Virus record (IMG/VR): IMGVR_UViG_2526164604_000012
Source: a virus
Lineage: Duplodnaviria; Heunggongvirae; Uroviricota; Caudoviricetes
Strand: one strand, 5' to 3'
DNA: 24,334 nt
Shown here: piece by piece, positions 3,001 to 6,000 of the stretch
Position numbering within the stretch: the first letter of the stretch is position 1
Layout: each line of letters starts with the position of its first letter
Program-made: the position numbers

Positions 3001-6000
3001 GGTACTTCTTTTTACTACGGCTTCCCATGGTGGATTGTAGGTGCAGGTGTTGATGATGTTGCCAGAAGTTTATTTTTTGCAGTTATCGTCATTGCTATAT
3101 TTCTTATCGGTTGGGGTATTGGTGTTGTATTCTTTTTCGCAGTGAAAAGAAAACATTCTATGCAAGAGCTAAATGTATTTCGCCTTTATTTTGCTGTGGA
3201 ATTATTGTTTGTGCCGGCAATTATTGAGTTTTCTATATTGAGACAGAAGATTCAGGTACCTCTTTTGCTACTGTCAGCAGCGATTGCGCTGGCGGTTACA
3301 ATTTCGATAAGATCTTATGGGCGATTTTTATCGGTATCATGCTTCTATGATAAGCCATTTATAAAAAAACATTTTTTTGAGATTGTGATGATTGCTTTTG
3401 TGGCATATTTCTGGCTTTTTTCATTTCTGACAGGATATTACAAACCACAGTTTAAGAAAGAATATGAAATGATTAATTATAATGATGGTTGGTATTATGT
3501 TCTTGCTCGTTATGATAATTGTCTGGTTTTGTCTACTTCTTTCAATGCAGGTAGTAAAAGGTTTGTCATTTATCAATCAGCACAAGATAAGAATCTTCAG
3601 GTTGATATTGTAAGGACCAGAATTTAATTGGCTGCATAAATAATATTTTAAGTTGCAAGTTGGCTATTCGTAGGAATAGAACCTTAGGCATGCTGAATGC
3701 GTTTCCTGAACATTGTTTTATAAACTGTGTCTGCTTGCTGTTGTGATCCTGCTTTTAGTGATGGTGATGATGGATTTCACCAGCAGGATAATGTTGGTAC
3801 TGACTGATGGCGCTCTGGTCTGCGGCATTGTGGTATTGCTGTGGCCGATGATGAAAGAACAGAATGAATAATTCTTGACTTTTTTGTTTACTGTTTATTA
3901 AAAAATCAACCGCATGGTGAATCCTCCTTGGAGGGGCTAAATGATCGAGTTTTAAGGGCACGTAGCGAGTTCTGTTTGATCATTGCAGAACTTAGCGGGA
4001 GGCGCCATGCGTACATCACTAATGTTATTTCCTTCTATCATTTTCCTTGTGAGTTCTGGCTGCGCATGGCGCGGCCTTTTTTTTATGACCTGCCACTGGC
4101 AGATGGTCATCCTGTGATTTGATTCCGGTTCCGGCTTTTTAACTCTGTTCCTGTACACGGGAGAAATTCTATGTCGATTAATCGTTATGATATTGGTTAC
4201 AAGAAGTACCACGTATTGTGTTGAGATAGAAAGCATGGTGCCAGAGGTAAATGCAGCAGCATAATAAAAAAGAGCCAGCGCAGAAGAGAACGGGTAAAAG
4301 AGTCTGCGCTGGCGTGGGGATATTCCCCGTGGAGAAATGATATGTAACACACATCGGGAACCTTTCTATATAAACATTATCATTATTGTCAATCATAACA
4401 GTCAGGTATTATGACGTTTATGCATCAGGGCCATCAGGAATTAACTGGTGGCTTTTTATTGTTGTCAGCTTCCGGATAACGGGAGACGGGGTATGTACCA
4501 GATGGAAAAAATAACAACAGGTGTGTCATACACCACGTCAGCGGTGGGGACGGGATACTGGCTACTGCAGTTGCTGGACAAAGTCTCCCCATCCCAGTGG
4601 GTGGCAATAGGCGTATTGGGTAGCTTGGTGTTTGGCTTGCTGACGTATCTGACAAACCTTTATTTCAAGATTAAAGAAGATAAGCGTAAGGCTGCGAGAG
4701 GTGAATAATGTCGCCATCATTACGCAAGGCTGTTGCTGCTGCTATTGGTGGTGGGGCTGCTGCCATAGCGTCTGTGCTCATCACTGGTCCGAGTGGTGAC
4801 GATGGCCTGGAAGGTGTCAGCTACATACCATACGAAGATATCGTTGGCGTATGGACTGTATGTCACGGACACACCGGAAAAGACATCATTCCCGGTAAAA
4901 CGTATACCGAAGCAGAATGCAAAGCCCTCCTGAATAAAGACCTTGCCACGGTCGCCAGACAAATTAACCCGTACATCAAAGTCGATATACCGGAAACAAC
5001 GCGCGGCGCTCTTTACTCGTTCGTTTACAACGTGGGCGCTGGTAATTTCAGAACATCGACGCTTCTTCGCAAAATAAACCAGGGTGATATCAAAGGCGCA
5101 TGTGATCAGCTACGGCGCTGGACATACGCTGGCGGTAAGCAATGGAAAGGGCTGATGACTCGCCGCGAGATTGAGCGTGAAGTCTGTTTGTGGGGGCAAC
5201 AATGAGCAGAGTAACCGCGATTATCTCCGCTCTGGTTATCTGCATCATCGTCTGCCAGTCATGGGCGGTTAATCATTACCGTGATAACGCCATCGCCTAT
5301 AAAGAACAGCGTGATAAAAAAGTCAGTGAGCTGAAGCAGGCGACCGCCACCATTACTGACATGCAGCAGCGCCAGCGTGCTGCTGATGCACTCGATGCTA
5401 AATACACGAAGGAGTTAGCTGATGCGAAAGCTAAAAATGATGCTCTTCGGCGCAAGCTTGATAATGGTGGTCGGGTGTTCGTCAAAGGAAAATGCCCTGT
5501 GCCATCCTCAGACGAAACCTCCAGCGCCTCCGGCATGGGCAATGATGCCACCGTCGAACTCTCTCCAGTTGCTGGACGAAACGTTCTCGGTATCCGGGAC
5601 GGAATTATCCGCGACCAAACAGCACTGAGAACGCTTCAGGAATACATCAGGACGCAATGCCTTCGATGATAGCGATAATTTTACTCATCATCCTTCACAT
5701 CTGGCTCTGTAGACAGGGTGGTGCTCACTTCTGGAGTGAATCATGGTTAAACATCTCATTGCTGATGCTTGATATTGAGCATCTGGCGCGCGGTAAGGGG
5801 CTGCGTTGAGATAAGAGCCAGTCATTAAAAATACCTGGATTTAGCCTCGCATTCGCGGGGCTTTTTTATTGCCATTACAAAAGCCACTCCCTACAGAGTG
5901 GCTTTGATAATGGCTTATACCCTACACGGGATAACTTAACTGATATCCCTTTTAACGGATAAAGGTATTCAAGCCTGACACATCATGCGCTGTATCGTCG

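Follow-up and report, generated by a model that had tools for sequence, protein, structure and literature searches.

We examined a minus-strand element lying between the antiterminator gene and the lysis genes in the IMG/VR record IMGVR_UViG_2526164604_000012 (Caudoviricetes; 24,334 nucleotides (nt), this whole stretch being called the window), and found that it corresponds to EcOnc32, a small RNA (sRNA) of the Escherichia coli O157:H7 prophage Sp3. With a probability of about 0.8, EcOnc32 is a prophage sRNA gene that is transcribed from a sigma-70 promoter near the TTGACA hexamer at 4392-4387, ends in a terminator at 4266 and acts as a trans regulator of entC. The role we favour is that it represses enterobactin synthesis in trans with the help of Hfq; transcription of the sRNA may in turn be controlled by Fur.

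The source prophage was identified by sequence identity. Window positions 1-6686 are 100% identical to positions 897315-904000 of E. coli O157:H7 Sakai (NC_002695.2), within prophage Sp3; over its full 24 kb, the window matches O157:H7 strain F6667 with 100% identity. The Q antiterminator gene is followed by genes for a membrane protein and a DUF3927 protein, then by the EcOnc32 locus, and finally by class II holin, endolysin and Rz. Two RNAs crosslinked to Hfq, EcOnc13 and EcOnc32, were reported from Sp3 by Tree et al. 2014 (Mol Cell 55:199, PMC4104026, Table S2), who detected them by crosslinking and analysis of cDNA (CRAC). EcOnc32 was placed at Sakai 901574-901662 on the minus strand with a predicted Rho-independent terminator, was present in 5/5 Hfq-CRAC datasets, and gave a Northern band estimated at ~112 nt; EcOnc13, at 901332-901382 on the plus strand, gave a band of ~187 nt (PMC4104026). 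The EcOnc32 Hfq-CRAC peak falls on the minus strand at window 4260-4348.

Mapping EcOnc32 by coordinates only was considered unsafe. The published EcOnc coordinates (Tree 2014, Waters 2017) agree with NC_002695.2 at 0.7-0.9 Mb, but a shift has arisen by 1.27 Mb (AsxR) and is also seen at 1.42 Mb (Esr41), both RNAs lying 135-140 nt higher in the current Sakai record than published. The question was settled by the read sequences. Chimeric reads labelled EcOnc32 and obtained by RNase E crosslinking, ligation and sequencing of hybrids (CLASH) contain three pieces of the RNA, ACATATCATTTCTCCACGGGGAAT, ACCCGTTCTCTTCTGCGCTGGCT and TTCTGCGCTGGCTCTTTTTT (Waters et al. 2017, EMBO J 36:374, PMC5286369, Table EV7). 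Each has a single match in the window, on the minus strand, running from 4345 to 4322, from 4295 to 4273 and from 4285 to 4266, respectively. Because the labelled reads match the locus verbatim, the ambiguity of the coordinate shift is removed and the locus is EcOnc32. The last of these pieces terminates with ...GCUGGCUCUUUUUU at 4266, the last U of the terminator tail, and so fixes this position as the 3' end. Judged by these sequence matches, the promoter-to-terminator unit is the already published, Northern-confirmed, Hfq-bound sRNA EcOnc32, and is not new. In the searchable literature, no main text was found to name or assign a function to EcOnc32, ECs0817, E2348C_1013 or a prophage sRNA acting on entC, and mention was confined to supplementary tables.

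Published data show that EcOnc32 is bound by Hfq and depends on Hfq for its abundance. The copy in prophage PP4 of enteropathogenic E. coli (EPEC) E2348/69 is identical to EcOnc32 and is annotated as the coding sequence (CDS) E2348C_1013. In chimeras from Hfq RIL-seq, in which interacting RNAs are ligated and then sequenced, E2348C_1013 is always RNA2, the hallmark of an sRNA; it occurs in ~808,000 of ~18 million fragments, and its level is 7.5-fold lower in delta-hfq cells (log2(delta-hfq/wt) = -2.91, padj 1.4e-23; Pearl Mizrahi et al. 2021). In enterohaemorrhagic E. coli (EHEC), the CLASH partners of EcOnc32 are the translation start of entC (ECs_0632; 4 hybrids), ECs1655, an open reading frame (ORF) of 60 amino acids (aa) in prophage Sp8 (2 hybrids), the 5' untranslated region (5'UTR) of ECs4065 (1 hybrid) and ECs2262 (1 hybrid) (PMC5286369). 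In EPEC, the most specific RIL-seq partner is entC.5UTR, with 263 chimeras, an odds ratio of 14 and p = 4e-165 (Pearl Mizrahi et al. 2021). As CLASH and RIL-seq both pair EcOnc32 with entC, the same target is recovered in two pathotypes. The ECs1655 CLASH read differs at two positions from the current ECs_1655 (Sakai Sp8, 1140-1280 of locus L006), with the 14-nt seed complementarity described below intact in both, and may stem from a paralogous prophage copy of the 60-aa ORF.

The contacts with entC and ECs1655 can be accounted for by a short seed in the sRNA (Table 1). Whole-molecule duplex prediction yielded long duplexes that were no better than those of shuffled sequences, and was replaced by seed-restricted duplex prediction. 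On entC, the seed (4345-4329) spans -12 to +2 relative to the AUG; the duplex has 15 pairs and a single bulged U, with dG -19.8 kcal/mol and z = -5.8, and only 1 of 2000 shuffles was as good. With ECs1655, it forms 14 perfect pairs from -11 to +2 (dG -21.7, z -6.4), a value reached by 0 of 2000 shuffles. The corresponding seed of Esr41, by contrast, reaches only about -11 on entC or ECs1655. On entC, the EcOnc32 seed covers the Shine-Dalgarno sequence together with the start codon, which is the classic geometry of translational repression. In both high-scoring chimeras (entC and ECs1655), the sRNA part begins at ~4345-4347, in the loop of stem-loop 1; this is suggestive only, but a cut in that loop would free the 3' arm that belongs to the seed.

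These observations lead to the following proposed mechanism. Synthesis of EcOnc32 proceeds on the minus strand, starting at a sigma-70 promoter built round the conserved TTGACA, and stops at the intrinsic terminator at 4266. Cleavage within the loop of stem-loop 1 would then bring the seed to a new 5' end, and pairing of the seed over entC would block ribosome entry and lower the expression of the enterobactin operon entCEBAH. Transcription of the sRNA would be subject to Fur, acting via a Fur-box-like site inside the promoter.

An earlier reading of the window made without database searches (hereafter the sequence-only reading) had proposed a non-coding RNA of about 95 nt here, possibly acting in trans on host targets. 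Direct reading of the minus strand found all the signals on which this was based, namely TTGACA at 4392-4387, a 16-nt spacer, TATAGA at 4370-4365, the GGGGA hairpin, and the 11-bp stem with its U-run. The proposal of an sRNA gene rather than a translated ORF is right, and that of trans action is backed by the two published interactome datasets (CLASH and RIL-seq). Folding of the 95-nt RNA from 4358 to 4264 gave three hairpins with a free energy of -34.9 kcal/mol, compared with -15.8 +/- 2.9 for dinucleotide shuffles (z = -6.64; 0 of 200 as good). The terminator has an 18-nt pyrimidine-rich loop, and its stem is followed by UC and six U residues (4271-4266), giving the stem plus UCUUUUUU. It was missed by the terminator scan because the loop exceeds the 8-nt limit of the tool. 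The tail contains the six or more U residues expected of an Hfq-dependent sRNA, the RNA ending at the last of them, and the terminator is likely the Hfq 3' binding module. Its loop (4285-4302, minus strand; core CCCGUUCUCUUCU) is unpaired yet conserved in most of the diverged variants described below, and one CLASH chimera links the terminator-loop part of EcOnc32 to the ECs4065 5'UTR; the loop could be a second interaction site or a site of contact with Hfq.

Next, we compared EcOnc32 with known sRNA families. A search of the whole window with Rfam at gathering thresholds found nothing at the EcOnc32 locus, the only hit being an ALIL pseudoknot at 17816-17932. Relations to Esr41 and STnc100 appear only in E-value mode, in which the Esr41 model (RF02676) matches the window RNA with 32.3 bits (E = 5.7e-4 for 1.1 kb searched). 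The same model matches diverged variants of the RNA from other prophages, with 31.8 bits for STEC17-183 (E = 0.025), 39.3 bits for OkiPb (E = 4.3e-4) and 47.5 bits for L041 (E = 4.9e-6). Neither the window RNA nor any variant reaches the RF02676 gathering score of 102 bits, which true Esr41 exceeds with 108.6 bits. Comparison of the Esr41 locus with the window by nhmmer and blastn-short gave nothing significant. The link to Esr41 is drawn because of these covariance-model matches and of L041 as a stepping-stone variant, and we treat EcOnc32 as a distant relative of Esr41 that falls outside the curated family RF02676.

The structural comparison is consistent with this kinship. Minimum-free-energy folds were computed independently for Esr41, for the window RNA and for five diverged variants, and all show one layout of hairpin, single-stranded U/C-rich seed, small G-C hairpin and terminator. 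Changes that preserve pairing include G.U to A-U in stem-loop 1 of the variants, and the STEC17-183 stem-loop 2, GAGGA-UAC-UCCUC, where both sides have changed so that A-U stands in place of G-C; in the L041 variant the inner terminator stem has been replaced. Esr41 (also EcOnc14) and EcOnc32 have in common the TTGACA -35, the 5' hairpin, a single-stranded UUUCUCCA(C/U)GGGG seed region, the small G-C hairpin and the terminator end GCUGGC(G/U)(U/C)U6-7. Both are Hfq-dependent, and Esr41, an EHEC sRNA encoded on SpLE1, represses chuA, cirA and bfr, and EcOnc32 too has an iron-acquisition mRNA among its partners; none of these three Esr41 targets is among the four EcOnc32 CLASH partners. The two differ in the terminator loop (18 nt in EcOnc32, ~5-8 in Esr41), in their seeds, so that Esr41 pairs poorly with entC and ECs1655, and in location, EcOnc32 lying in a lambdoid prophage beside lysis genes and Esr41 in SpLE1 beside iha.

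To assess prevalence, we searched for the window-type sequence in complete E. coli genomes. It was present in 603 of 5426, always on the chromosome, and the carriers include O157:H7, O55:H7, O26, O111, O103 and EPEC O127:H6; it was also present in phage Evi. A strict structured pattern run over one genome per species (185,579 species) retrieved only Esr41 itself, in E. coli and Shigella, and the strict pattern scans did not find the family outside Escherichia/Shigella and their prophages. Two scans of viral contigs yielded 73 prophage loci, and because these represent only about six sequence types, covariation statistics are weak. In one variant, L010 (E. coli CFIAFB20190172, 1422-1585, downstream of stx2i), the seed-like motif is retained, as are stem-loop 2 and the terminator of the family. 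Its 5' part is unrelated; the variant has no TTGACA promoter, its fold is poor, and it represents a decaying copy or else a recombinant that acquired a new 5' module.

The promoter can be placed with less precision than the 3' end. TATAGA lacks the conserved T at position 6, for which reason the consensus scan passed over TTGACA/TATAGA and gave an overlapping pair, CTGACT-18-GATAAT at 4405-4376, instead. Promoter-like sites in the region are not enriched over shuffles (5 found, 6.2 expected). By its sequence alone, the TTGACA/TATAGA promoter thus does not stand out from chance, and its support comes from the conservation of TTGACA in the variants and in Esr41. Position 1 of the Esr41 Rfam model lies 30 nt downstream of TTGACA; by analogy, use of TTGACA/TATAGA would start EcOnc32 at ~4355-4358 and give a length of 90-93 nt. 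Use of the GATAAT -10 would give a start at ~4367-4369 and a length of ~102-104 nt, which is nearer to the Northern estimate of ~112 nt. The size of about 95 nt and the start at 4358 given in the sequence-only reading are therefore not established. Between the -35 and -10 hexamers lies a Fur-box-like sequence (Table 1), whose match has P ~0.0015 in local shuffles, with 0.08 such sites expected across the whole window. The promoter of the diverged OkiPb variant also keeps a 15/19 Fur-box match. It is reasonable to suppose that Fur controls EcOnc32 transcription through this candidate box. The Fur-box consensus is matched at 15/19 positions a second time by GATAATTTTACTCATCATC, at 5674-5692 on the plus strand, just downstream of the Rz/Rz1 genes.

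Several points weigh against this account. Seed complementarity is absent from the rpoS start region and from a site within nleB, which are the two most abundant of the remaining RIL-seq partners, and part of the EcOnc32 interactome is thus unexplained or non-specific. The direction and size of the effect on entC expression are inferred. The T missing from TATAGA is the most conserved one, and the Northern band of ~112 nt is longer than the RNA predicted from TTGACA/TATAGA. The case for Fur consists of one 15/19 consensus match in AT-rich DNA. Covariation is thin, with one pair changed on both sides in the automatic alignment of 7 sequences, and the kinship with Esr41 is invisible to searches that use sequence only and falls far under the Rfam gathering score.

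Another possible role for the RNA is in cis. The sequence-only reading had suggested that it modulates lysis timing as an antisense RNA, and more generally the RNA, or its transcription, could oppose the Q-antiterminated late transcript leading to holin, endolysin and Rz, tuning lysis timing or insulating the lysis genes in the lysogen. The EcOnc32-type gene is indeed always directed against late transcription, directly upstream of the lysis cassette, in every context examined (after DUF3927 in the window, and after a TerB gene, SASA esterase or stx2i in the variants), and it is perfectly complementary to ~100 nt of any late mRNA that reads through. However, the RNA, which lies in an untranslated spacer and spans at most 4266-4369, overlaps no ribosome-binding site (RBS), start codon or CDS of the late operon, the holin CDS beginning at ~4493, ~100 nt past the sRNA promoter. 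The position is also a known insertion hot-spot for accessory genes with convergent sRNA pairs, of which AgvB and AsxR have a proven trans function; the chimeras seen in vivo involve unlinked host mRNAs; and the RNA is abundant in uninduced lysogens, where the late transcript is absent. With no functional late-operon element overlapped and nothing linking the RNA to lysis, the lysis-timing idea finds no support, and we regard a main role in cis as unlikely.

Somewhat less likely still is a main role as a sponge in the manner of AgvB and AsxR, titrating a core sRNA or Hfq itself. AgvB and AsxR (RF02702 and RF02703) occupy the same niche in other Sakai prophages, as the minus-strand member of a convergent pair opposite an STnc100-type RNA, and the very large share of Hfq-bound fragments taken by EcOnc32 in EPEC would suit such a role. 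Yet these RNAs, which carry a conserved 3' region of ~42 nt, are about half as long (51-60 nt, compared with 90-104 nt, and in any case at least 90, for EcOnc32) and do not resemble it in sequence, and neither model has a match at E <= 10 within window 3600-4700. AgvB and AsxR act on the sRNAs GcvB and FnrS, whereas no sRNA is found among the four CLASH partners of EcOnc32 or among its observed RIL-seq partners, all of which are mRNA regions or 5'UTRs; its seed is of anti-Shine-Dalgarno type and extends over start codons. These features favour trans regulation of mRNAs by EcOnc32.

A protein-coding gene, with the 132-aa ORF (3952-4350) or the 72-aa ORF (4178-4396) as the real product and the RNA signals belonging to its mRNA, is very improbable: RefSeq annotates the 132-aa ORF in many genomes, but this ORF begins within stem-loop 1, passes through a strong terminator at which the RNA demonstrably stops, and then lies antisense over the full length of PasD1; the overlapping ORFs match no Pfam family at threshold (a sub-threshold match to Sid-5 was judged to be due to chance); 1-nt indels in the diverged variants break the frame, so that the ORF is flagged there as frameshifted or incomplete; and the RIL-seq chimeras always place the transcript on the sRNA side. 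The CDS annotation of the 132-aa ORF is very probably spurious. The sequence-only reading had noted that the 72-aa ORF runs through the terminator, which is correct, and had described it as the only ORF on this strand, which is not, as two others overlap EcOnc32 (Table 1).

Table 1. Positions of EcOnc32, its signals and neighbouring features in the window
Feature	Position	Strand	Basis or remarks
EcOnc32 sRNA body	4266..4358	-	CLASH pieces, Hfq-CRAC peak, fold z = -6.64
-35 hexamer TTGACA	4387..4392	-	Direct reading; kept in all promoter-bearing variants and in Esr41
-10-like TATAGA, 16-nt spacer	4365..4370	-	Lacks T at position 6; TATAAA or AATAAA in variants
Overlapping alternative promoter CTGACT-18-GATAAT	4376..4405	-	Consensus scan; -10 is TATAAT in L041, TATCAT in OkiPb
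Fur-box-like AATAATGATAATGTTTATA (candidate)	4369..4387	-	15/19 matches to GATAATGATAATCATTATC; between -35 and -10
Stem-loop 1, GAUGUGU-GUU-ACAUAUC, 7 bp	4339..4355	-	Fold; absent from the sequence-only reading
Seed ACAUAUCAUUUCUCCAC	4329..4345	-	3' arm of stem-loop 1 plus single-stranded linker; anti-Shine-Dalgarno sequence
Stem-loop 2, GGGGA-AUA-UCCCC	4316..4328	-	Fold
Intrinsic terminator	4266..4313	-	Perfect 11-bp stem GCCAGCGCAGA/UCUGCGCUGGC at 4313-4303/4284-4274
ORF, 132 aa (RefSeq ECs_0817 / E2348C_1013 / WP_012578864.1)	3952-4350	-	Hypothetical protein, annotated in many genomes
ORF, 72 aa	4178-4396	-	Reads through terminator
ORF	4197-4352	-	Also overlaps EcOnc32
PasD1/EcOnc13, diverged STnc100-type sRNA	3912..4084	+	Identical to 173-nt PasD1 of EPEC E2348/69
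PasD1 terminator	4058-4084	+	Stem 4058-4076, U-run into 4080s; 3' end of PasD1
Promoter-like TTGCAA-17-TATACT	2684-2712	+	Overlaps end of Q gene
9-bp hairpin with T-run	2746-2775	+	Terminator after Q

The genome neighbourhood of EcOnc32 contains a second sRNA, PasD1/EcOnc13, encoded on the opposite strand. PasD1 was equated with EcOnc13 by its authors (PMC8550237), and an EcOnc13 CLASH read maps to window 3990-4009. On the STnc100 model it scores 37.7 bits, compared with a gathering score of 47. A possible PasD1 promoter, TTGACT, is present at 3875-3880. The sequence-only reading had taken the terminator upstream of the EcOnc32 locus for tR', probably wrongly, as this terminator (4058-4084) is the 3' end of PasD1/EcOnc13 and a better candidate pair lies directly after Q, where the promoter-like site and the hairpin with T-run are likely the PR' and tR' of the prophage.

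Convergent sRNAs placed between accessory genes downstream of PR' and the next phage ORF were described in Sp3, Sp4, Sp5, Sp9-11, Sp15 and Sp17 (PMC4104026), and the arrangement of EcOnc32 and PasD1 in Sp3 fits this description by Tree et al. An STnc100-type RNA was present in the same locus in the variants tested (L007, L010, L041 and L088), and was convergent to the EcOnc32-type RNA where its position could be compared. The EcOnc32 gene is half of a conserved two-gene convergent sRNA cassette, with an STnc100/PasD-type RNA, just upstream of the lysis genes in many prophages. Hits of the 'Esr41' model are reported to be frequent near PasD (Zhu, Shabalina and Storz 2026 preprint), and these are probably EcOnc32-type RNA.

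Two further structured elements were observed in the window. A terminator-like hairpin on the late-transcript strand (4427-4455, plus; 11 pairs, then TTTTTATTG) overlaps the upstream GTG of the long holin frame, just before the annotated holin start, and could either mark a place of Q-dependent read-through or contribute to control of the holin start site. The ALIL match (RF01497, 121.5 bits, plus strand) is full-length and represents the frameshift signal of an IS3-family transposase, indicating that an insertion sequence (IS) element lies in the tail-gene region of the prophage; in the genomes of close relatives, IS1203 is annotated somewhere under their matches to the window.

Among the known systems, EcOnc32 as reported by Tree 2014 and Waters 2017 agrees with the window element in locus, strand and sequence, with nothing that differs. 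The EPEC E2348/69 sRNAs PasA and PasC (Pearl Mizrahi et al. 2021; Zhu, Shabalina and Storz 2026 preprint), whose EHEC homologues are EcOnc51/52, likewise depend on Hfq and are encoded on the same strand as EcOnc32 in the same niche, with an accessory gene on one side and holin on the other. TTGACA and the 3' arm of the terminator are common to them and EcOnc32, and PasC also shares the downstream flank ATTATGCTGC, but their RNA bodies cannot be convincingly aligned to that of EcOnc32. As the MAFFT alignment was unreliable in the RNA body, we make no claim of homology between PasA/PasC and the EcOnc32 family.

RyhB, the core Fur-repressed iron-sparing sRNA, resembles EcOnc32 in its dependence on Hfq and in acting on iron-acquisition mRNAs, including the ent system. 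It has a Fur box in its promoter, where EcOnc32 has only a candidate, and no homology to EcOnc32. RyhB is reported to promote enterobactin production, whereas the pairing of EcOnc32 with entC predicts the opposite. In a bolder version of the mechanism, which we advance tentatively and at rather less than even odds, EcOnc32 would be a phage-borne, Fur-controlled regulator opposing RyhB: RNase E would trim the loop to leave the seed at a monophosphorylated 5' end, the entC RBS would be covered, and enterobactin synthesis would be turned off. If true, EHEC and EPEC mobile elements would bear, with Esr41, a small family of sRNAs that re-routes iron uptake.

The scan of raw sequence alone recovered a validated Hfq-dependent sRNA, which serves as a positive control and adds no new kind of element. 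The RefSeq label of hypothetical protein had hidden EcOnc32 in the EPEC RIL-seq tables, though it is among the most abundant Hfq-bound RNAs there. The two interactomes, together with the seed complementarity, yield the testable hypothesis that an Esr41-related prophage sRNA, possibly controlled by Fur, represses enterobactin synthesis in both EHEC and EPEC. Iron acquisition matters in gut colonisation, and if a prophage were to control a core siderophore pathway, this would broaden the notion that sRNAs let such phages reprogram the physiology of their host.

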